Positions 2,141 to 22,042 are shown, counted from the first letter of the stretch. The stretch is DNA of 32,000 nt from Candidatus Syntropharchaeum caldarium (GCA_001766815.1 LYOS01000002.1:180001-212000); one strand, 5' to 3'. Numbers and translations are program-made. Notes: a model not told the origin generated them from the sequence alone.

Positions 2141-3394
2141 TCAGAGATCTTCTGGGTCTGTGATTTTGCCTGCGATCGCACTTGCAGCTACCACAGCAGG
2201 AGAAGCTAAATAGACAAGAGAATCTTTGTGACCCATACGACCCACGAAATTTCTGTTTGTCGAACTGACACAGACCTCGCCTGCATCAAGAACTCCCATG
2301 TACCCTCCAAGACATGCACCACAGGTCGGGCCTGATACAAACGCACCAGCAGATGCAAATATCTCAAGAAGTCCTTCTCTGATTGCCTGAAGATACACCT
2401 GCTGAGTTGCAGGAACGACGATCATCCGAACATTGCGTTTCACCTTTCTTCCCTTCACAATCGCTGCTGCAATTCTCAGATCCTCGATCCGCCCGTTGGT
2501 GCATGATCCGAGATATGCCTGATCGATCACAACATCCAGATCCCGCGCAGGTGATGTGTTATCTGGGAGAAATGGTGCTGCCACTGTTGATGGGATTTTC
2601 TCGGCTTCATACCTGAATGTATCCTCATACTCTGCGTCCTTATCGGCATACACGGGAGTATAATCTCCCCTGACCCTTCCTTTGAGATATTCAAAGACTT
2701 TATCATCTGGTGGAATGATTCCAGCCTTGGCACCGGCCTCGATCGCCATATTACATATCGTGATTCGATCAGCAAGCGGCAGCGACTCAATCGCAGATCC
2801 ATAAAATTCCTGTGCCCTGTAGAGTGATCCAGATACACCTATATCACCCAGAATGTGCAGTATAATATCTTTTCCAGATACATACCGTCTGAGTTTACCA
2901 TCCACGATGAACCGCTGGGTTTCGGGAACCTTGAACCAGAGTTCGCCTGTTGCCATCACTGCAGCAGCCTCTGTTGACCCGATGCCAGTTGAGAATGCGC
3001 CAAGTGCACCGTATGAGCATGTGTGTGAGTCAGCACCAACAATAAGCCTGCCTGGCGCTGCAAATCCCTCCTCGATCATGACCTGGTGGCAAACCCCGCC
3101 ATCCCCTGGCCAGTAGTAGTTCTCGATCCCGTACTTTATACAGTAATCCTGCAGGGCTTTCGCCTGTTTTGCTGATGCGAGGTCTTTGTTTGGGACGTAG
3201 TGATCTGCGATGGCAACCACGCGTTCTCGTTGCATCGAATGGTTAAGTTCCTCAAATACCTCAAACGCAGGTACGCCTGTGACGTCGTTAACCATTACAT
3301 AATCGATCTTGCACGCAACGATCTCGCCCGCGGCCACCTCCTTCTTACCGTCGATTGCTTTACTACCAAGTATCTTTTCTGCGATTGTCGCCAT
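2141..3394 (-). CDS. Aconitase-family dehydratase large subunit (3-isopropylmalate dehydratase LeuC or homoaconitase HacA)
   Basis: MATIAEKILG..., GADSHT, and an Fe-S cysteine region (LGSCTNGR, GPTCGACLG). The ORF-track start at 3421 is probably too long: ATG at 3394 is preceded by GGAGG about 10 nt upstream. No small subunit lies in the window. I cannot separate LeuC from HacA by eye. Confidence 0.85.
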   Translation of the reverse strand: MATIAEKILGSKAIDGKKEVAAGEIVACKIDYVMVNDVTGVPAFEVFEELNHSMQRERVVAIADHYVPNKDLASAKQAKALQDYCIKYGIENYYWPGDGGVCHQVMIEEGFAAPGRLIVGADSHTCSYGALGAFSTGIGSTEAAAVMATGELWFKVPETQRFIVDGKLRRYVSGKDIILHILGDIGVSGSLYRAQEFYGSAIESLPLADRITICNMAIEAGAKAGIIPPDDKVFEYLKGRVRGDYTPVYADKDAEYEDTFRYEAEKIPSTVAAPFLPDNTSPARDLDVVIDQAYLGSCTNGRIEDLRIAAAIVKGRKVKRNVRMIVVPATQQVYLQAIREGLLEIFASAGAFVSGPTCGACLGGYMGVLDAGEVCVSSTNRNFVGRMGHKDSLVYLASPAVVAASAIAGKITDPEDL

Positions 3395-3417
3395 AAAATC
3401 AGAGCCTCCAACACCAA

Positions 3418-3783
3418 TCAATCACTCAAGTGCTTGTTGAAGATCTTCTCCAGTCGTTTTGCAGAAAAAGGCTTGACGAGGTAGTCCACGGCCCCTGCTT
3501 CCATCGCCTCATTGATGATGTTTGGCATATCAATCGCGGTTATAACAACGATCTTTGCTTCAGGATCGATCGCACGGATGGCTTTTATCGCCTCAACCCC
3601 GTTCATTGATGGCATCACAATATCCATCGTTACAAGGTCTGGTTTGAGTTCTTCATATGCCCTGATGCCCCGCTCTCCCGTGGTCTCGATGAAAACATCA
3701 TAGCGTGTTTCATCTATCATCTCCTTCATCATCGCTGTTATCGGAGCTGCATCATCAACGATCAGAATCTTCTTTTTTTCCAT
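3418..3783 (-). CDS. Single-domain CheY-like response regulator receiver
   Basis: ILIVDD, the phospho-acceptor context LVTMDIVMP, VVITA and LVKPF are all present, so the full receiver residue set is intact. The ORF-track start at 3810 is a GTG overlapping the upstream stop. ATG at 3783 (MEKKKILIVDD) has AGGAGTG 5 nt upstream and is preferred. Confidence 0.9.
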   Translation of the reverse strand: MEKKKILIVDDAAPITAMMKEMIDETRYDVFIETTGERGIRAYEELKPDLVTMDIVMPSMNGVEAIKAIRAIDPEAKIVVITAIDMPNIINEAMEAGAVDYLVKPFSAKRLEKIFNKHLSD

Positions 3784-3806
3784 CCAGACACTCCTGCTGA
3801 CCACCC

Positions 3807-5243
3807 TCACACGATCGGATTGAGTTTCACCTTTGGATAACCAGCCGATACGTCGAGACTCATGTAGTAAAGCTCTGTTCTCGGTTTTATTCCATAGATG
3901 ACGATCGATCCAGAGAGGGCTTCAAGCTTCAGATGCATATCTGAGATATCTGCCAGATACCTGTTGATCTCCTCTGTGCTATCTCTTCCAATAGCGATTG
4001 TGAGCGAACTTGCATCATCAGTACACCTTGCAAGGATACTCATGAGTTTCAGTAACTCATCTTTGTTGGTGTATATGTAATCAAAGACATCAAATCCCAC
4101 TGTGTTGAGAACAGGGTTTCCAGTTTCCTCCTGTAGCCTGTTCCAGAGCTTCCGCCATTTTGCAACATCATCCATCAGATTTCCTGGTTCAATCGAACAT
4201 ATGTATTTCTCTGACTCAAATCCGTCACCATCAGGAAGATATGTAAACTCCACGAACTTCATAAGTTCATTCAATCGATCCTCGAAACCATAGAGGTATG
4301 CGTTTGCCTTCATTCCCTTTGGACTCACTTCACCTGGGGGAAACATTATAACCGGGTTTTCCTGATGTATAAAATTTGCAACCGTCTGCATCAGAACATT
4401 CATGAAGGCATCCTGTGCAACATCAGCCCCAATATCAAGAAATACAAAGCTTCCAAGGGGATAACCACCACCAAGCATATCATCAAGATCCTCTGAACCT
4501 GATGAAAAGTAAGATGGTGTATCCTTTATAGGTTCAAACCGCTTATGCTCTGACGGATATTTAAACTCGAATGGCTTAAGGCTGCTGAAGACTCCTCCTT
4601 CAAGCGAGAAGAGATATGCAGGATGCTCTCGCCTCACGCCTCTGAGTTTATTGATGTTGAGGGTCCTGACCGCCCTACCACCGATTTCCTCTGCCTTCAT
4701 CGTGATCACACTATCAACCAGATAATCAAGTTTATCCTGATATGTGTACTCACTCACGAGGATAAAATCGATACTCGCTTTGCTTGAAATATCGGTGATC
4801 AGCGATTCAAGATCTTCTCTGTTCTCAACCTCCCCGGTCTGTGTCAGTACCGCATCCCAGCTATCAATGACGACCACTGCAACCTCAAACTCGTCGCACA
4901 TGCGATAGATATTGCCAAGGAAGGTTGGACGATCAGAATACTTAAGCGTATTTATGAAATAGTCCATATCCATATTTTCCCGAGTTGAAACTGGTTCAAA
5001 TTCTGATTGCGTGGCATCTATGATATGTTTTGGCGGTATAACCTTGGAGATCCATGGAAAATCAGCGTAGAGTTTGGTATTGTCGACTCTTGTTGAGAGA
5101 TAAATCCCATTATTTGTCCCGTAAAGTTCTTTCAGGAGGGTTAATGCGAAGATTGTCTTGCCTGTCCCTGGCTCCCCTTTAACAAGCATTGTATGTCCCA
5201 TTTCGCCTTTGAAGAACTCTATGATCTCATCAGGTATTGCCAT
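3807..5243 (-). CDS. Two-domain KaiC/GvpD-like RecA-superfamily ATPase (N-domain intact, C-domain P-loop degenerate)
   Basis: 478 aa. The N-terminal half has Walker A (GEPGTGKT) and a Walker B-like motif (VAVVVIDSWD). The C-terminal half repeats the KaiC-type entry motif (LDDMLGGGYPLGSFVFLDIG) but has ADVAQDAF where the P-loop should be. Confidence 0.7.
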   Translation of the reverse strand: MAIPDEIIEFFKGEMGHTMLVKGEPGTGKTIFALTLLKELYGTNNGIYLSTRVDNTKLYADFPWISKVIPPKHIIDATQSEFEPVSTRENMDMDYFINTLKYSDRPTFLGNIYRMCDEFEVAVVVIDSWDAVLTQTGEVENREDLESLITDISSKASIDFILVSEYTYQDKLDYLVDSVITMKAEEIGGRAVRTLNINKLRGVRREHPAYLFSLEGGVFSSLKPFEFKYPSEHKRFEPIKDTPSYFSSGSEDLDDMLGGGYPLGSFVFLDIGADVAQDAFMNVLMQTVANFIHQENPVIMFPPGEVSPKGMKANAYLYGFEDRLNELMKFVEFTYLPDGDGFESEKYICSIEPGNLMDDVAKWRKLWNRLQEETGNPVLNTVGFDVFDYIYTNKDELLKLMSILARCTDDASSLTIAIGRDSTEEINRYLADISDMHLKLEALSGSIVIYGIKPRTELYYMSLDVSAGYPKVKLNPIV

Positions 5244-8448: not shown

Positions 8449-9264
8449 TTATATCCGCATGAGTTTATCTCTGACACGCGTGAAGAAACTCTCACCAGAT
8501 TTTACAAAGAGCGCCGATCGATCGGATTTCACGATCTCGATCTCATCGCCCTTGCTTACAGATCGATTTATCTCGCCATCTACAACAAGCATCGCATCCT
8601 TTTCAGGTTCGAGAAGCTCAATTCTGATCCTGCTTGAGCCTGCAACAACCGCGGGGCGAGCCGAGAGTTTGAACGGCGCGAGTGGGACAATTAACGTGCA
8701 ATCCATCCCTGGATCTACTATCGGACCTCCTGCACTCATCGAGTATGCAGTTGAACCAGTTGGTGTGGAGAAGACAACACCATCTGCACGCAGACGCTCA
8801 AAACCCTCTCCATCTATCAGAATTTCAAAATGTAGCATCTTGGCAGGTCTCAACGTGAGAACAACGATCTCGTTCATTGCAGTAGCTTCTTTCTTCTTGT
8901 TCACGATCACATCAAGTCTGGAGCGTTCTTCAACCTCAAAATTATCGATGATCTCACAGATATTTGCAAGTGCCTCATCCGGAGTCAGTGCTGCAAGAAA
9001 GCCGAGTGCACCCATCCCAATGCCAAGAACTGGTATCGGATCGTCCATTGCGGCAATCGTTCGTAGTATGGTTCCATCCCCACCGATACAGAGTATTACA
9101 TCCACATCCATATCACTGATCGGTGCCCCATCTATACCAAGTTTTAATGCAGTCCCAGGATCTGCGATAACATCGAGATGATCTCTGATCCGCTCAAAGA
9201 TATTTTCTGCCATCTGTGAGAGATCGTCTCTCGCAACAATACCAACACGACGTGCCCTGATCAC
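8449..9264 (-). CDS. nadK: NAD kinase
   Basis: 271 aa with the GGDGTILR motif, NEIVV, and the TPTGSTAYSMSAGGPIV signature. Confidence 0.9.
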   Translation of the reverse strand: MIRARRVGIVARDDLSQMAENIFERIRDHLDVIADPGTALKLGIDGAPISDMDVDVILCIGGDGTILRTIAAMDDPIPVLGIGMGALGFLAALTPDEALANICEIIDNFEVEERSRLDVIVNKKKEATAMNEIVVLTLRPAKMLHFEILIDGEGFERLRADGVVFSTPTGSTAYSMSAGGPIVDPGMDCTLIVPLAPFKLSARPAVVAGSSRIRIELLEPEKDAMLVVDGEINRSVSKGDEIEIVKSDRSALFVKSGESFFTRVRDKLMRI

Positions 9265-9965
9265 GCTATGTCCCTCGATGTATCGATCTCGATCCCATGA
9301 GGTCCGATCTTGAACTTGATGAACTCAGGAAGGGGTGCCATCCCACGCACCTTTGTGATCGAGAAGCGATTATTTATTCTGTGACCCACCCGCTCAAGGT
9401 CCACATTGAATATCACATCCGCAACATTCATGATATAATTCTCAATTTGCTTATCATGGCTGTCATTCAGGACATACAGGAATCCAAGTCCGCCGCATCC
9501 TTTTACAAGCTCGTATAATCGGTTAACAAGATTTCTCAATCTGAATTGATCGATCTTCAGATCCATGAAGAACGAGAAAGTATCTACGATGATATTGAAT
9601 TCATTCTCACCTTCCACCTCTTTTATGGTTTCAAGTTCGACCTCGATCCAATCCATGATCTTTTCATCACTGTCTTCGGTATATCCACCATTGAGATTAT
9701 ATTTGCTGTAGACATCTAAAAATATGACTGAATCCATATTCTGCGTGCATCCGATCGTAGCGATATTCTGCGCTATATACTCGTGCCTTCGGGTGGTTGT
9801 GATATAGTACGTCTTACGGGAGGATGTGAACTGGTACAGAAATATCTCTGCCATTGAGTCGGGATCACCTCTAAAATAGATGAGCGAGCCAGCCGGGAAT
9901 CCGCCTCGCATGATCGTATCAAGCATATATATCCCTGTTGGCTTGAGCATTCCTGCATCCCTCAT
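9261..9965 (-). CDS. KaiC/RecA-superfamily domain protein with degenerate Walker A (predicted non-catalytic)
   Basis: 234 aa. It has the KaiC-type entry (GIYMLDTIMRGGFPAGSLIYFRG) followed by DPDSMAEI where GxxGxGK[ST] is expected, and a Walker-B-like IIVDTFS. Its stop overlaps the nadK start by 4 bp. Confidence 0.6.
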   Translation of the reverse strand: MRDAGMLKPTGIYMLDTIMRGGFPAGSLIYFRGDPDSMAEIFLYQFTSSRKTYYITTTRRHEYIAQNIATIGCTQNMDSVIFLDVYSKYNLNGGYTEDSDEKIMDWIEVELETIKEVEGENEFNIIVDTFSFFMDLKIDQFRLRNLVNRLYELVKGCGGLGFLYVLNDSHDKQIENYIMNVADVIFNVDLERVGHRINNRFSITKVRGMAPLPEFIKFKIGPHGIEIDTSRDIA

Positions 9966-16997: not shown

Positions 16998-17711
16998 GTG
17001 GTCATGATCACAGAGGTCTCACTCGTACTTCCTGCATACAATGAGGCGGAGCGCATCGTCAGGTGTGTCGAACGCGCAGTCGAAACTCTCGAAAAAATAA
17101 CACCCTCGTTTGAGGTTATCATTGCAGAAGATGGTAGCACCGATGAAACCCCCTCTCTTGCAGCAGAGCTTGCAGATACCTATGCCCAGGTCAGGCACCT
17201 CCATAGCGATACGCGTCTTGGGAGGGCTGGTGGCATGGTGAGGGCTTTCAGGGTAGCAGAGGGAGAGATACTTGCCTTTATGGATGTCGATCTTGCAACA
17301 GATCTCAGTCATCTACAGGAACTTATTCAGGCGATACGAGATGGCTTTGATGTGGCAACAGGATCAAGATTGATGAAGGAGAGTGATGTTACGCGCTCTT
17401 TCAAGCGCACCATATTGAGCAGGGGATATAACTTCCTTGTGCGACTCCTGCTCAAATCAAAGATCAGAGATCACCAGTGCGGATTCAAGGCGTTTAGACG
17501 TGATATGCTATTTGAGATCATCGATGAACTTGAGGATGAGCACTGGTTCTGGGATACCGAGCTTCTCGTTCTTGCCCAGAAAAAAGGCTATCGTATCTAT
17601 GAGTTTCCGGTGAAATGGGTAGACGGTGAGATGACAAAGGTCAATCTATCAAGTGATACTTTCGAGATGGGGTCAAAGATCTTTGCCATGAGGCGGAGGA
17701 TTAAGAGGTGA
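16998..17711 (+). CDS. Family 2 glycosyltransferase (dolichyl-phosphate hexose synthase-like)
   Basis: 237 aa. SLVLPAYNEAERI, AEDGSTDET, FMDVDL (DxD) and GFKAFRR are present. Confidence 0.85.
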   Translation: MVMITEVSLVLPAYNEAERIVRCVERAVETLEKITPSFEVIIAEDGSTDETPSLAAELADTYAQVRHLHSDTRLGRAGGMVRAFRVAEGEILAFMDVDLATDLSHLQELIQAIRDGFDVATGSRLMKESDVTRSFKRTILSRGYNFLVRLLLKSKIRDHQCGFKAFRRDMLFEIIDELEDEHWFWDTELLVLAQKKGYRIYEFPVKWVDGEMTKVNLSSDTFEMGSKIFAMRRRIKR

Positions 17712-17713
17712 AG

Positions 17714-18571
17714 ATGAAGAAGCCGCGGCAGATTGCGATATATGGTAAAGGTGGAATAGGTAAATCCACAATCTCTTCGAACCTTGCAGCAGCCTGTGCC
17801 ATGCGTGGACTGAAGGTTATGCTGCTTGGGTGTGATCCAAAAGCAGACTGCACTCGCAATCTGAGGGGAGACCTGGAGATACCAACGGTGCTTGATGTTC
17901 TGCGAGAGCGCGAGAAGACCGGTGGAGAGATTGATGTTGATGAGATCGTTTATCGTGGGTACAACGGTGTTCTCTGTGTCGAGGCAGGAGGTCCTGAGCC
18001 TGCGGTTGGGTGTGCTGGAAGGGGGATTATTGTTGCGGTTGAACTCCTGAAGCGGCTTGGGGTCTATGATCAGGATCTTGATCTTATCATCTATGATGTA
18101 CTCGGCGATGTTGTATGCGGGGGTTTTGGGATGCCACTCAGGCAGGGACTCGCAGACCACGTCTTTGTTGTCACATCAGCAGACTATCTCGCGATATATG
18201 CCGCAAATAATATCTGTAAAGGTATTCAGCGTCATGCAGGGAGGAATGGATCGCCGCTTAGCGGCATTATATACAACGTGCGAGGTGTGATCGATGACCC
18301 TGGACTTGTCAAAGAGTTTGCAGAGCGCGTTGGATCATCTGTGGTGGGAGCGATCCCCTTTGATCCACTGATCACAGAGAGCGAACTCTATGGTAGAACT
18401 GTCATCGAGTCAGATCCAGATTCTATGATTGCAGGCCGCTTCAGAGAACTTGCAGAGACAATTCTTACAATTGAAAAAGGTATAACGCCACACGCACTAT
18501 CACAGGAAGATCTGAGTGATTTTGCACAGAAAATACGGGAGATGGCAGGTAAGCGAAAGCCTACGAGGTGA
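17714..18571 (+). CDS. cfbC: NifH/BchL-family ATPase, probable Ni-sirohydrochlorin a,c-diamide reductive cyclase component CfbC
   Basis: IAIYGKGGIGKSTISSNLAAA (P-loop), with both 4Fe-4S cysteine ligands (VGCAGRGI, DVVCGGFGMP). The ORF-track GTG at 17708 overlaps the GT2 stop. ATG at 17714 follows GAGGTGA. The assignment as CfbC rather than another Nif-like group is inferred from the methanogen context. Confidence 0.75.
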   Translation: MKKPRQIAIYGKGGIGKSTISSNLAAACAMRGLKVMLLGCDPKADCTRNLRGDLEIPTVLDVLREREKTGGEIDVDEIVYRGYNGVLCVEAGGPEPAVGCAGRGIIVAVELLKRLGVYDQDLDLIIYDVLGDVVCGGFGMPLRQGLADHVFVVTSADYLAIYAANNICKGIQRHAGRNGSPLSGIIYNVRGVIDDPGLVKEFAERVGSSVVGAIPFDPLITESELYGRTVIESDPDSMIAGRFRELAETILTIEKGITPHALSQEDLSDFAQKIREMAGKRKPTR

Positions 18572-19070: not shown

Positions 19071-19283
19071 ATGCCAAATCTCCTTACCACACTTTATGCA
19101 ACATACGTATTTAAGTATATCGAAGAGCGGAGATTTTGTTGTAACGCATTTAAAAATCTGTCGGTGTTTTTATGCTCAACCCTACGAAAATATGAGTTAA
19201 GGCGTTCACCATTAAATTTCGAAAGAAAAACACACACATCCAGATTGCTGTGGAAACAATCGTTATCATATTGCTTTAATTAA
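19071..19283 (+). other. Orphan 70-codon ORF in AT-rich spacer (coding status doubtful)
   Basis: MPNLLTTLYATYVFKYIEERRFCCNAF... is basic and matches no family I recognise. A TATA-like gatataaaattaagg lies about 45 nt upstream. The ORF overlaps the 3' end of the convergent tauE-like gene by 18 bp and lies in about 34% GC sequence. Confidence 0.2.
19221..19237 (-). terminator. Oligo-T tract downstream of the tauE-like gene
   Basis: The minus strand reads gtgtgtgtttttctttc about 30-45 nt after the stop. Archaeal termination typically occurs at T-runs. Confidence 0.35.
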
Positions 19284-20009
19284 CACAACCAATGCAAGGA
19301 TTATAACAAGTATTGAAAGTCCGATTTCTAACCACCTATGTTTTGTCCTTAGAGATATTAAACTGCCCGTCCTTGCGCCAGTTACCGACCCTATAATTAC
19401 CGCTAAGGCGGGAAGTAATATTATATCGCCCCGATACCAAAAAATCACCGCTCCAGCAATTGCTGTAAAAATGGTTGCAAACAAGGATGTCGCTATTGCC
19501 CTGCGAATATCGAGTTTCATCATTCTTAAAAATGGAGGGAACAAACTACCACCTGAACCTCCACGCATAATCGTAAGGAAATTAAGAAACAACGCTCCAA
19601 GAATGTAAGTCTTCGCGTCTGGATTAATTTTTTGAGCAATTCCCGGGAAGATTCTATCGAAATAAATCCCCAATACCGTTATGATAGAAACAATAAGAAA
19701 GATAATCGCTAAAACCAATGTTGGTATAATTCCTGTTAAAAATGCACCTGTTACCGTGCCTGACATGCCACCAATTATTACATATCGAGCAATTTCCCAA
19801 TCTATGTTCTTTCTGTGGCTTATAGCGGCTATAAGCGAAGAGAATGGTATAACCAATAGATTTATTCCAAAAGCACTCAGTAAAGGCAATCCAGCAACAT
19901 AAAGCAAAGGTATCCTGACAGAACCCCCGCCTATACCAAACATACCACTCATAAATCCGGTAAAAAGTCCTATGAAAAGATATACCAGCATTTGTGTTAT
20001 TTGTTCCAT
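19266..20009 (-). CDS. TauE/SafE (DUF81) family anion exporter-like membrane protein
   Basis: 247 aa with about 8 TM segments. It has the duplicated glycine-rich motif (GMFGIGGGSVRIPLL and RGGSGGSLFPPFL) typical of TauE/SafE. Its composition is markedly lower in GC than its neighbours. Confidence 0.85.
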   Translation of the reverse strand: MEQITQMLVYLFIGLFTGFMSGMFGIGGGSVRIPLLYVAGLPLLSAFGINLLVIPFSSLIAAISHRKNIDWEIARYVIIGGMSGTVTGAFLTGIIPTLVLAIIFLIVSIITVLGIYFDRIFPGIAQKINPDAKTYILGALFLNFLTIMRGGSGGSLFPPFLRMMKLDIRRAIATSLFATIFTAIAGAVIFWYRGDIILLPALAVIIGSVTGARTGSLISLRTKHRWLEIGLSILVIILALVVLIKAI

Positions 20010-20056: not shown

Positions 20057-20296
20057 TCAGGTTTCTCCCTTCAACCACTTCTTTATCGTATCGACATCCA
20101 CGATCCTTCCAGATGCTTTCACTTCTCCATCTATAACAAGTGCGGGGGTTGTCATCACACCATACTCGATTATCTTTCCAATATCACTGACTTTTTCGAT
20201 CTCCGCCTGGATATCTAATTCCTCAACTGCCTTCCTCACATTCTCTTCCATTTTATTACACTTTGCGCACCCTGTGCCAAGTACCTCGATTCTCAT
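20057..20296 (-). CDS. Small thioredoxin-fold redox-active disulfide protein (MTH895/TM0996 type)
   Basis: 79 aa. MRIEVLGTGCAKCNKMEENV carries the CxxC, followed by ...TTPALVIDGEV. The start overlaps the upstream stop as ATGA. Confidence 0.85.
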   Translation of the reverse strand: MRIEVLGTGCAKCNKMEENVRKAVEELDIQAEIEKVSDIGKIIEYGVMTTPALVIDGEVKASGRIVDVDTIKKWLKGET

Positions 20297-20964
20297 CCAA
20301 TCATCTCCTTTTCTTCAGGATCTGCTATGAACTTTCTCCATCTGCTAACCATCTTTGGTTTTTCAACCTCCCAGGGCTTCTCGATCTTCATGCTGATCTT
20401 CACGCAGATCGGATCCTCTGCATATGCACCGGGATCGTAGAGCGTGTAATTCTCAAACTGGCTTGGTTCTTCCTGATAACATGCCCTTACAGCATCTGTC
20501 ACTTTATCTGCATCAAGACAATCAATGAGATCTATAATCCTGATCTGTCTTCTGAACTGCTCGATTGCCTCTTCTGGAATGTTTGGTAGATACGGCGTTA
20601 ACGCGGTTGAACCGATTATCCACCCCCTCTCATCAACACCGTTTTCAACCAGTTTTATGAGTGTATCTCCTGGGAGATGTCCCCATGCTTCCCTTCCACA
20701 GATGATTAGGTACCTTATATTCGGATTTGCAACGATGTTACATATAAGCTTCTCAATCCCAATATTCTCGGTCTGAAGCATACCTGAAAGGGCAGCCCCA
20801 GCATCAACTGCTGCCATCACGAGGTCCTCAAGTTCCATCGGGATTGCAAAGTCAAATGTATCGAGGATTACACATACCGCAACAGGCGAGTAATCATTCC
20901 CTCTCACGTATCTTCCATCTTCTGGCGGGTATTCTGATGGTGGTTTTACCTTATAGATTTCCAT
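20293..20964 (-). CDS. Soluble MtrA-family corrinoid-binding protein (no C-terminal membrane anchor)
   Basis: 223 aa. LQTENIGIEKLICNIVANPNIRYLIICGREAWGHLPGD...NGVD...IPEEAIEQFRRQI closely parallels the MtrA core, including the His of the xxGH motif used as the cobamide ligand. It lacks the hydrophobic tail of MtrA. Confidence 0.8.
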   Translation of the reverse strand: MEIYKVKPPSEYPPEDGRYVRGNDYSPVAVCVILDTFDFAIPMELEDLVMAAVDAGAALSGMLQTENIGIEKLICNIVANPNIRYLIICGREAWGHLPGDTLIKLVENGVDERGWIIGSTALTPYLPNIPEEAIEQFRRQIRIIDLIDCLDADKVTDAVRACYQEEPSQFENYTLYDPGAYAEDPICVKISMKIEKPWEVEKPKMVSRWRKFIADPEEKEMIG

Positions 20965-22042
20965 ACAAGACCCCCGTCAAAGTTGATATTAGAATAACAA
21001 GCAGAATGTAAACACCAGCTCGCTTTCCACCCATCACTCTCGTTATCACAATCATGTTTGGAAGGCTCATCGAAGGTCCTGCAAGAAGAAGCGATAACGC
21101 AGGACCAGCTCCCATTAGACCTGATGTGTAGCCGAAGAAGTGCCCGACGATTGGAACTTCCAGGAGTGTTGGCATGTACAGAATCGCCCCGATCACCGAT
21201 GCAAGGAGGCATGCTGCAGGAGAGCTATCGCCGAGATAAGGCATGGTAAGTTCTCCAACCGCGGTTGCAGGGTCGTGGGATGGTGCAAAACCCGAAGCAA
21301 TGCCCCCGATCACACCGATGATGAATGTTCCCAGGAGTAAAACGGGAAAGATCTGCCGGGTCAGCCACCAGGTCTCATGCCCCCATTCTTTCACCTCATC
21401 CCTTGAATAGTAGAAGATGAGAAGGATTGAGACGGCTATCGTCAGTAAATAGATTGCGATGAGCTTTGTTATGGTTGGTATAAGCCCTGAAGCTCCGATT
21501 AAGAGGATCGCAACAAGAAGGATGAAGAAGAGAAGTGTGATGTACCATGGTCTCCCATCTTTTGCAATGGTTTTAATCTCGTTGACCGAGTCGCACCTAT
21601 CTCCCCGCTCAAATATCGATGCCATTATCAGCCCGATCACAATAGACATCAGGATGGCAGCAAGTGCCCTTGCAACCCCAAGCTCGAGCCCCAGAACTCG
21701 TGCTGTTAATACAATTGCAAGAAGATTGATGGCAGGACCTGAGAAGAGAAAAGCTGATGCAGGCCCTATTCCTGCCCCTCTACGATGAATTCCTGCAAAC
21801 ATCGGGAGAATCGTGCAGCTACAGACAGCAAGAATCGTTCCTGAGACAGAAGCAACAGAGTACGAGATCCATTTCCTGGTGTTAGCCCCAAAATACTTCA
21901 GGATTGTTTCCTTCGCAAGCAGAGCCGAGATGGCACCGGCGATGAAGAATGCTGGAACGAGACATGTCAGGACATGAAGTGAGAGGTACTCCATAAGGGT
22001 ATTAAACCCTGCTGTAAGGGCAGTTACCAGCAGTCCACTCAT
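20951..22042 (-). CDS. COG0701/ArsP-like permease with vicinal CxC motif
   Basis: 363 aa with about 9-10 TM segments. HVLTCLVPAFFIAGAISAL and SGTILAVCSCTILPMFAG match the permease family that includes the organoarsenical exporter ArsP. Its 3' end overlaps the MtrA-like gene start by 14 bp. Confidence 0.8.
   Translation of the reverse strand: MSGLLVTALTAGFNTLMEYLSLHVLTCLVPAFFIAGAISALLAKETILKYFGANTRKWISYSVASVSGTILAVCSCTILPMFAGIHRRGAGIGPASAFLFSGPAINLLAIVLTARVLGLELGVARALAAILMSIVIGLIMASIFERGDRCDSVNEIKTIAKDGRPWYITLLFFILLVAILLIGASGLIPTITKLIAIYLLTIAVSILLIFYYSRDEVKEWGHETWWLTRQIFPVLLLGTFIIGVIGGIASGFAPSHDPATAVGELTMPYLGDSSPAACLLASVIGAILYMPTLLEVPIVGHFFGYTSGLMGAGPALSLLLAGPSMSLPNMIVITRVMGGKRAGVYILLVILISTLTGVLYGNL

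Follow-up and report, generated by a model that had tools for sequence, protein, structure and literature searches.

A soluble MtrA-fold protein encoded between an ArsP-type permease and an ArsE-type thioredoxin: a candidate corrinoid component of arsenic operons in anaerobes

The methylation and demethylation of arsenic in anoxic soils and sediments control its toxicity, its volatility and its uptake into rice. To our knowledge, the sole enzymes characterised for these reactions are ArsM, which depends on S-adenosylmethionine (SAM), and the O2-dependent ArsI and ArsH; we know of no enzyme for anaerobic demethylation or for the classical methylcobalamin-dependent methylation. Trivalent organoarsenicals are exported by ArsP-type permeases with a vicinal cysteine pair, as known from work on C. 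jejuni ArsP. Here we describe a three-gene operon of Candidatus Syntropharchaeum caldarium, found in a stretch of 32,000 nucleotides (GCA_001766815.1 LYOS01000002.1:180001-212000; this whole stretch is called the window below), in which a predicted corrinoid protein with the fold of the methanogenesis subunit MtrA is encoded between a permease of the ArsP family and a thioredoxin-like protein of the ArsE type.

Among the systems described so far, MtrA and its cytoplasmic homologues (5LAA, 5L8X, 8Q3V; PMC4915002) are the closest to this corrinoid protein. In the homologue from M. fervidus, cobalamin is contacted by Tyr18, Thr53, Glu54, Asn55, Gly57, Asn64 and His84: His84 ligates the cobalt, Glu54 hydrogen-bonds this histidine, Tyr18 stacks on the base, and Thr53, Asn55, Gly57 and Asn64 hold the cobalamin tail and side chains (Wagner et al. 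2016, PMC4915002). The same paper mentions bacterial and non-methanogen homologues and assigns them no function, and two genomic papers consider that MtrA(H) outside methanogens may funnel methyl groups, in a role that they call unclear (PMC9635834, PMC11291895). As regards the permease and the thioredoxin, an operon of ArsR, ArsP, ArsE (PF13192) and a DGC protein is induced by arsenic in Pseudodesulfovibrio mercurii ND132 (DND132_2311-2314; 10.1101/2022.10.17.512643). The role of arsP is also cited in the arsenic literature, this preprint included, and the function of ArsE is taken here as the preprint cites it; the arsenic literature sampled, again with this preprint, lists no corrinoid component. 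HgcAB, the mercury-methylation system, is often under an ArsR-like regulator and near ars genes (10.1101/2022.10.17.512643). In a full-text literature search, with subscription journals outside its coverage, we found no link of the MtrA-like family to ars operons or to arsenic.

The operon comprises the following elements:

20951-22042, minus strand: gene 1, an ArsP_1-family (COG0701) permease of 363 amino acids (aa) (PF03773, E 4.6e-66)
20293-20964, minus strand: gene 2, an anchorless MtrA-fold protein of 223 aa (PF04208, E 7.7e-47)
20057-20296, minus strand: gene 3, an MTH895/ArsE-type thioredoxin-like protein of 79 aa (PF13192, E 1.6e-29)
22074-22065, minus strand: the TATA-like box of the operon, TTTTTTATAG, read from the sequence

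All three open reading frames (ORFs) were recovered by ORF calling at the coordinates that the original prediction had given them, and the overlaps said to fuse them are there as well. Genes 1 and 2 overlap by 14 nucleotides (nt), seen as ATGGAAATCTATAA at 20964-20951 on the reverse strand, with the ATG of the MtrA-like gene falling inside this overlap, within the final permease codons; the stop of the MtrA-like gene is shared with the start of the thioredoxin gene in an ATGA at 20296-20293. Shine-Dalgarno-like GGGGG and GGAG stretches stand upstream of the two internal starts. The single TATA-like box expected ahead of the trio is its sole promoter-like element, and because TTTTTTATAG is centred ~27 nt ahead of the permease start codon at 22042, archaeal promoter geometry implies an mRNA that would be leaderless or nearly so. 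With the ArsR-ArsP-ArsE-DGC operons the trio shares a vicinal-Cys ArsP_1 permease directly paired with an MTH895/ArsE thioredoxin. It differs from them in placing a predicted corrinoid protein between the two and in lacking ArsR and DGC, whereas the described operons of this kind are without a corrinoid component.

The permease, classed correctly as COG0701 by its PF03773 match, carries the vicinal cysteine pair claimed for it (AVCSCT). Its scores fall below the NCBIfam equivalog cutoffs for SaoE (75.7 vs 325) and SO_0444 (72.5 vs 300), and it therefore belongs to neither family; no ArsP equivalog model was among its NCBIfam matches. Of 36 full-length ArsP copies with linkage to an MtrA-like gene, 34 retain the C-(S/T)-C motif, some in the form PFCSCS. 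Gene 3 was assigned to the MTH895 type with good reason, scoring 112.6 bits against a cutoff of 62 in the 'MTH895/ArsE family' model TIGR00412, and its CxxC motif is the GCAKC at residues 9-13. At one relative's locus (L004 4351-5380) the ArsP_1 gene beside the MtrA-like gene is split into two successive half-size ORFs of ~159 and 178 aa; the same split occurs in L005, L006, L021, L062 and L078, in several unrelated lineages, which suggests a two-gene form of the permease rather than an assembly error.

The product of gene 2 matches the MtrA structures 5LAA and 5L8X at E ~1e-42 and ~40% identity, and shares with MtrA the PF04208 domain and a Rossmann-like fold. The corrinoid-binding core and histidine context (EAWGHLPG) attributed to it are present and the cobalamin contacts are kept: in the alignment, Tyr18, Thr53, Glu54, Asn55, Gly57, Asn64 and His84 of the M. 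fervidus homologue correspond to Y19, T65, E66, N67, G69, N76 and H96 of the window protein, and these residues are invariant or nearly so across 48 members of the clade that it forms with its relatives. The base-off/His-on His-Glu ligand pair and the residues of the nucleotide-tail pocket would thus be common to MtrA and the window protein. An AlphaFold (AF2) model built on this alignment reached a mean confidence (predicted local distance difference test, pLDDT) of 87, with residues 1-190 mostly above 90, and Foldseek against the PDB returned significant matches solely to MtrA structures, with template-modelling (TM) scores of 0.93-0.95 and a root-mean-square deviation of ~2 Å; superposition on cobalamin-bound 5LAA gave a TM score of 0.94. 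A C-terminal segment specific to the clade (about residues 172-190, LYDPGAYxxPPIC) is confidently modelled, and residues 203-223 form a charged tail that is disordered in the model (pLDDT below 50). The lack of a membrane anchor also holds, the C-terminus being charged and without a transmembrane helix in the sequence, as in the cytoplasmic MtrA homologues. Given the residue conservation, the structural model and the Fe-S fusions of relatives described below, we are confident that gene 2 encodes a corrinoid-binding protein of the MtrA fold. A clade-specific invariant cysteine pair for direct As(III) binding was looked for and rejected: canonical MtrA shares C89 and C162, and no other cysteine is invariant.

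The same protein is predicted not to be the methanogenesis subunit MtrA itself, because it has no anchor, has no Mtr neighbours and scores below the cutoff of the true-MtrA equivalog model TIGR01111 (156.9 bits vs 249.15). It passed the subfamily model NF002126 (189.5 bits vs a cutoff of 161), as do all 48 clade members at E ≤ 1e-10, and this model labels the whole clade 'tetrahydromethanopterin S-methyltransferase subunit A'. Unlike MtrA, the window gene lies outside an mtrEDCBAFGH operon and does not adjoin MtrH, and its clade is mostly bacterial, is found in ars operons and includes relatives fused to Fe-S or winged-helix domains. No MtrB-H partner was found in the window, either by a hidden Markov model (HMM) scan of all its ORFs or by Pfam matches of the other genes, in agreement with the original prediction.

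At E ≤ 1e-10 the protein database holds 3,581 homologues of the window protein. The best 120 score 267-492 bits at 57-97% identity, and solved canonical MtrA proteins score ~100-150 bits in the same comparison. The nearest named relative is from Ca. Syntrophoarchaeum butanivorans (81% identity), and the other homologues come mostly from Dehalococcoidia/Chloroflexota, Deltaproteobacteria/Thermodesulfobacteriota, Bathyarchaeia, Nitrososphaeria and Hydrothermarchaeota. The framing of the system as one of methanogens is thus unsafe, as its nearest relative belongs to a butane oxidiser and most members are bacterial (Dehalococcoidia).

Around a strikingly conserved core the accessory domains vary: architectures, scored by motif in 84 clade members in the loci, are dominated by Fe-S fusions. 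A C-terminal PF04060 [4Fe-4S] domain is present in 44 members and an N-terminal ferredoxin domain with two [4Fe-4S] clusters in 6; 18 members are bare cores of the window type, 13 have another C-terminal extension, such as a winged-helix domain, and in 3 the core motif was not found. Corrinoid methyl carriers regain Co(I) through low-potential Fe-S partners. Since the relatives are fused to Fe-S domains of this corrinoid-reducing type, the fusions argue independently for a redox-active corrinoid in the clade. The best NCBIfam match of the C-terminal domain is to residues 5-51 of the gamma subunit of the acetyl-CoA decarbonylase/synthase (ACDS) corrinoid iron-sulfur protein (CFeSP; AcsC/CdhE) of the Wood-Ljungdahl pathway, where the cluster re-reduces the corrinoid. 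The likeness ends there: the corrinoid domain of the clade is of the MtrA type, not the TIM-barrel/Rossmann arrangement of CFeSP, and the window protein has no cluster domain. The N-terminal ferredoxin ranks HgcB, the mercury-methylation ferredoxin, first in five clade members, at 42-52 bits against a threshold of 99, so that this likeness falls below threshold and is suggestive only.

To survey the surroundings of soluble MtrA-like genes, as the original prediction had proposed, we scanned one genome per species, in a set of species representatives that excludes the window's own genome, for relatives of the window protein. They turned up in 366 genomes and form a tightly conserved clade (55-81% identity). 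We examined the 80 loci of greatest similarity among the 366, all of them from metagenome-assembled genomes (MAGs). ORFs were called mechanically and labels for the neighbours came from HMMs whose seeds were taken from the window and from loci with Pfam annotation, so some family labels are approximate; the labelling gave the MtrA-like family priority over the stand-alone PF04060 Fe-S protein. The linkage was found: ArsP and the thioredoxin family Thioredoxin_3 (Trx3) together flank the gene in 34 of the 80 loci. Where at least 5 kb was available on both sides, they flank the MtrA-like gene in 21 of 30 loci (18 of 22 bacterial, 3 of 8 archaeal). Counted singly, at up to 5 kb from the MtrA-like gene, Acr3 is present in 53 of the 80 loci, ArsR in 45, ArsP in 38, Trx3 in 37, DsbD in 27, ArsM in 17, DGC in 12 and LMWPc in 10. 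At least one ars-linked family lies within this distance in 70 loci, and an Acr3, ArsM or ArsC-like gene in 55. Nearly all of these ars-family genes (254 of 264) are co-directional with the MtrA-like gene, and their density, 5.8 per 10 kb in the nearest 2 kb, is down to 1.15 at distances above 4 kb.

The usual order in bacteria is ArsR, ArsP, Trx3, in some cases a small Cys-rich protein, in some cases a membrane protein and DsbD, then the MtrA-like gene and Acr3; ArsM, an ArsC-like LMWPc gene and DGC-domain or PKD proteins are often added. The labels were checked on samples. Transporters of 353-357 aa pass the NCBIfam Acr3 model (360-366 bits vs a cutoff of 283), the methyltransferases pass the ArsM model (335-374 bits vs 263), and the regulators are ArsR/SmtB by NCBIfam. 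A 315-aa SBF protein of L004, one of the Acr3 seeds, was rejected as a true Acr3 (75 bits vs 283), and some Acr3 counts may thus take in other SBF transporters; the ArsC-like neighbours score below the cutoffs for arsenate reductase equivalogs and were not accepted as such. Further recurrent families are TlpA-like thioredoxins, DsbD-like proteins, DUF169, a cupin, a radical-SAM/SPASM protein and an ABC-2 transporter, and an FdhD/NadA synteny near the MtrA-like genes is lineage-specific. The ars association of the clade is strong, if not universal. It spans phyla of both domains of life with shuffled gene order, and a shuffled order with constant neighbours is the signature of a functional module.

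Closer to the window, an identical trio of ArsP, MtrA-like and thioredoxin genes was found on an independent assembly. Each of the four closest relatives of the window protein has an ars-type neighbour, a different part each time: in S. butanivorans (P0002) a divergent DGC gene lies upstream of the MtrA-like gene, P0003 is a bare pair of ArsR and MtrA-like gene, and P0004 has ArsP, an MtrA-like protein fused to a helix-turn-helix (HTH) domain, and Acr3, in that order. S. butanivorans also has a 66-aa ORF with weak MtrA similarity just upstream of the 223-aa gene (L001 5723-5923; the same in L002, L003 and L010), which may be a duplicated fragment or pseudogene. In a MAG of the 'Methanospirareceae' (ANME-1, anaerobic methanotrophic archaea; L022), an ArsM gene (2137-2898) overlaps a bare-core MtrA-like gene (2892-3584) by 7 nt, which we read from the gene layout as translational coupling of ArsM with the putative corrinoid protein; a second MtrA-like copy of 290 aa follows ArsR and ArsP at the same locus.

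Some recurrent neighbours are without a Pfam match or poorly described. One is a membrane protein of ~160-180 aa just upstream of a DsbD/CcdA-like gene in 24 of the 80 loci; another is a protein of 87-100 aa that follows Trx3 and has an N-terminal KPCCPAAAAR motif; a third is a stand-alone protein of 181-189 aa that recurs in ars operons and whose only recognisable part is the PF04060 [4Fe-4S] motif. Coordinates for the three families are L007 3582-4064, 2646-2909 and 3040-3585, and L004 658-954 and 5457-6026.

A distant relative was seen on plasmids of Planococcus (L096 6440-7819, Planococcus sp. plasmid pA30H1, NZ_MN657150.1; L095 464-1840, a plasmid of P. kocurii ATCC 43650). This protein of 459 aa has an N-terminal region with no known domain, an MtrA domain and a C-terminal PterinBD-DUF4346 domain; its MtrA domain retains TENLGIE and the histidine of CGRDSRGH. 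On pA30H1 the gene directly follows an ArsR/SmtB regulator, a 69-aa 'cation transporter' and a heavy-metal P-type ATPase. It is a second, distant lineage of the MtrA fold in an ArsR-type metal-resistance operon, and its host is a cultured aerobe.

The ars-operon context with ArsR, Acr3, ArsM and ArsC-like genes supports well the earlier idea of an arsenic or metalloid link and of one functional unit, and we consider it very probable that the three genes form a module for arsenic or metalloid handling of the ars-operon kind. That this handling involves transfer of a methyl group between cobalt and arsenic, in either direction, is a step further and, in our view, slightly more probable than not. 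More specifically, and tentatively, the MtrA-like protein might methylate As(III), with subsequent export of the product. Gene structure, family membership, a conserved B12 site and a conserved ars context are what the data show; from these we infer that the protein is loaded with a corrinoid, that a methyl group passes to arsenic and in which direction, and that the protein is physically coupled to ArsP. We lean to the methylation direction because free methylcobalamin does the same to As(III), because it makes sense as detoxification, and because it mirrors HgcAB. Methylcobalamin methylates As(III) abiotically when thiols are present, and McBride and Wolfe reportedly found in 1971 that methanogen extracts methylate arsenic with methylcobalamin.

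In such a scheme, ArsP would act as a thiol-lined efflux permease for trivalent (organo)arsenicals, and the ArsE-like thioredoxin would keep arsenic-binding cysteines and As-thiol adducts reduced. The MtrA-like protein would be a soluble corrinoid carrier, its cofactor held base-off/His-on through His96-Glu66, that exchanges a methyl group between cobalt and thiol-held arsenic at or near the permease. Methyl-Co(III) would give its methyl to thiol-bound As(III), the methylated product would exit via ArsP, and a housekeeping corrinoid methyltransferase encoded elsewhere would recharge Co(I) from methyl-tetrahydromethanopterin or methyl-tetrahydrofolate. In most relatives, Co(II) that arises adventitiously could be taken back to Co(I) by the fused [4Fe-4S] domain; the window version, which has no such domain, would need a ferredoxin in trans.

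The likeness to HgcAB is functional only. The module may work as HgcAB does, combining a corrinoid protein with a membrane component and a low-potential [4Fe-4S] ferredoxin to act on a soft metal(loid). HgcA, however, has a CFeSP-like corrinoid domain with a Cys 'cap-helix' ligand and its own transmembrane domain and is not homologous to MtrA, whereas the window protein is predicted to be MtrA-fold, soluble and His-ligated, and its operon has no ferredoxin. If the methylation direction is right, the net reaction would be that of ArsM, which has an unrelated fold and uses SAM, not a cobamide, as cofactor. ArsM is found in the same operons as the MtrA-like gene (17 of 80), which is why we do not regard the MtrA-like protein as simply an ArsM substitute; the co-occurrence argues for complementary roles, not equivalent ones. 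It seems to us about as probable as not that the clade represents the corrinoid subunit of an unrecognised O2-independent, cobalamin-dependent system for arsenic methyl transfer, a second kind of 'metal(loid) methylase' that would rest on the MtrA fold and have arisen by convergence with HgcAB.

Several observations weigh against methylation followed by export. The commonest gene directly downstream of the MtrA-like gene is Acr3 (33 loci), not ArsP, and an As(III) exporter in this place would equally fit demethylation. A second methylating system looks redundant where the SAM-dependent ArsM is already present, and in L022 even translationally coupled. When the unlabelled ORFs up to 4 kb away in the 80 loci were clustered, no methyltransferase partner of the MtrH, MeTr or MtaA type recurred, so that both methyl-transfer half-reactions are without an assigned catalyst. 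The window copy has no Fe-S domain, and winged-helix fusions in some clade members hint at sensing. The window operon contains no canonical ars gene (ArsR, Acr3, ArsM, ArsC), only the ArsP_1 permease and the ArsE-like thioredoxin, and 10 of the 80 loci, several of them on long contigs, show no ars link; these include loci from Thorarchaeota, Hydrothermarchaeota, a Methanotrichaceae MAG and one Dehalococcoides MAG.

The position of Acr3, next to the MtrA-like gene and within 5 kb in two thirds of the loci, favours a reversed reaction, which we consider unlikely but which fares best among the alternatives. The protein would then be an anaerobic arsenic demethylase whose Co(I) form strips methylated arsenicals of a methyl group to give methyl-Co(III) and a trivalent arsenical, the likeliest substrates being mono- and dimethylated species (MAs, DMAs) in pentavalent or thiolated form; Acr3 would export As(III) and ArsP would export MAs(III), and the system would be an O2-independent counterpart of the dioxygenase ArsI. 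The presence of ArsM beside the gene, not replaced by it, is in line with this, the Fe-S fusions suit a need for Co(I), and the O2 dependence of ArsI leaves its niche unfilled in anaerobes. Anaerobic DMAs demethylation in paddy soils has been attributed to corrinoid methyltransferase systems, with no enzyme identified (PMC10579292, 10.64898/2026.08.27.747368). Turning pentavalent methylarsenicals into more toxic trivalent species would nonetheless be a poor resistance strategy for an ArsR-type operon, and on chemical reasoning Co(I) attack on trivalent CH3-As would face an unfavourable leaving group. An acceptor methyltransferase for the methyl-Co(III) is not encoded nearby either, and the window has ArsP without Acr3.

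The dominance of architectures with one or two fused [4Fe-4S] domains could also mean that the protein is a corrinoid/Fe-S reductase, comparable to reductive dehalogenases or QueG, an explanation we find improbable. Cobamide and Fe-S clusters would carry out a two-electron reduction, either of a pentavalent (organo)arsenical to the trivalent form or by reductive C-As cleavage, with a thioredoxin/DsbD relay in charge of the thiol chemistry. The gene directly follows the LMWPc ArsC-like gene in 6 loci, thiol-disulfide relay genes surround it (DsbD in 27 and Trx3 in 37 of 80), and the missing methyltransferase partner would pose no problem. Fold and ligands nevertheless match a methyl carrier, His-on and of the MtrA type, and differ from those of class III B12 reductases, which are base-off and ligand-free; an Fe-S domain is missing from the window copy and from 18 of 84 other members, and some operons already encode ArsC-type reductases.

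A role as sensor, regulator or chaperone seems slightly less probable still. On this reading the domain would monitor or buffer arsenic, or the methyl-corrinoid status of the cell, with no turnover of arsenic, for instance through the methylation-dependent His-on/His-off switch proposed for MtrA; in some lineages a DNA-binding domain is fused to it. The C-terminal winged-helix fusions in relatives from Methanosarcinales/ANME (P0004, P0006, P0009; 58-70% identity) point this way, as do ArsR directly downstream in 7 loci and the bare ArsR pair of P0003. HTH-fused copies, however, coexist with separate ArsR genes (L062, L078), and the fusion may just reflect adjacency; Fe-S fusions dominate, there is no clade-specific invariant Cys pair that could bind As(III), and translational coupling to permease and thioredoxin suggests a stoichiometric working part.

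The weakest explanation, that the protein is left over from MtrA or a cytoplasmic copy of it, feeds methyl groups into one-carbon metabolism and stands by a generic COG0701 permease incidentally, is in line with the literature reading of non-methanogen MtrA(H), with the 10 ars-free loci, with the absence of ArsR, ArsM and Acr3 from the window and with the S. butanivorans gene, which no permease or thioredoxin adjoins, but it is very improbable in view of co-directional ars-linked genes whose density decays with distance in 70 of 80 loci, a linkage across both domains of life with shuffled order, the ars-type neighbours of all four closest relatives, and a census in which no Mtr subunit was found and MtrH was nowhere adjacent.

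Downstream of the trio, one further gene may belong to the operon:

19266-20009, minus strand: a possible fourth gene, a TauE/SafE-family membrane transporter (PF01925, E 2.2e-37)

It starts 47 nt past the thioredoxin gene, shares its strand and comes with a separate TATA-like box, ttatatag, at ~20030-20023. This box is so near the first ATG that a second one, at 19991, may be the true start. TauE genes occur near MtrA-like genes in 5 of the 80 loci, and in L004-L006 and L063. In the window, the neighbours of the MtrA-like gene are thus ArsP_1, Thioredoxin_3, TauE and an acetate-CoA ligase. The rest of the window encodes archaeal housekeeping functions: S8e, S19e, aRF1, ArgRS, archaeosine TGT, HisG, a NifH/CfbC-like protein and the acetate-CoA ligase. 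The HMM scan of all ORFs and the Pfam matches confirmed that ArsR and ArsM are missing from the 32-kb window, as had been noted, and found no Acr3 or ArsC anywhere in it. The NifH-family protein (17708-18571, plus strand) scores 380.8 bits against a cutoff of 350 in a 'nitrogenase reductase-like protein' subfamily model and stays under the cutoff of the F430 CfbC model (350 vs 402); it would fit an F430-using alkane- or methane-metabolising archaeon, and is no proof of one. Unrelated to the operon are a GvpD/KaiC-like P-loop ATPase followed by a stand-alone response-regulator receiver (3418-5243, minus strand) and a second KaiC-like/DUF7125 ATPase (9261-9965, minus strand).

The new element in all this is a predicted, previously unrecognised corrinoid component in an ars operon. 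Conserved, predicted to bind B12 and encoded in ars operons of several hundred anaerobic species or more, the protein is a directly testable candidate, and its clade is found in strict anaerobes: Dehalococcoidia, Desulfobacterota, Bathyarchaeia, ANME and alkane-oxidising archaea. If cobalt-arsenic methyl transfer is indeed its function, the clade would supply the missing enzyme for the methylcobalamin-dependent methylation of arsenic known from anaerobe extracts since 1971, or for anaerobic demethylation, and would parallel the proposed arsenic link of HgcAB mercury methylation. Automatic annotation as MtrA also feeds metabolic reconstructions for Bathyarchaeia, Asgard archaea and Dehalococcoidia, where these proteins are read as left over from methanogenesis or as enzymes for methyl funnelling; reassigning the clade to arsenic handling would correct those inferences.

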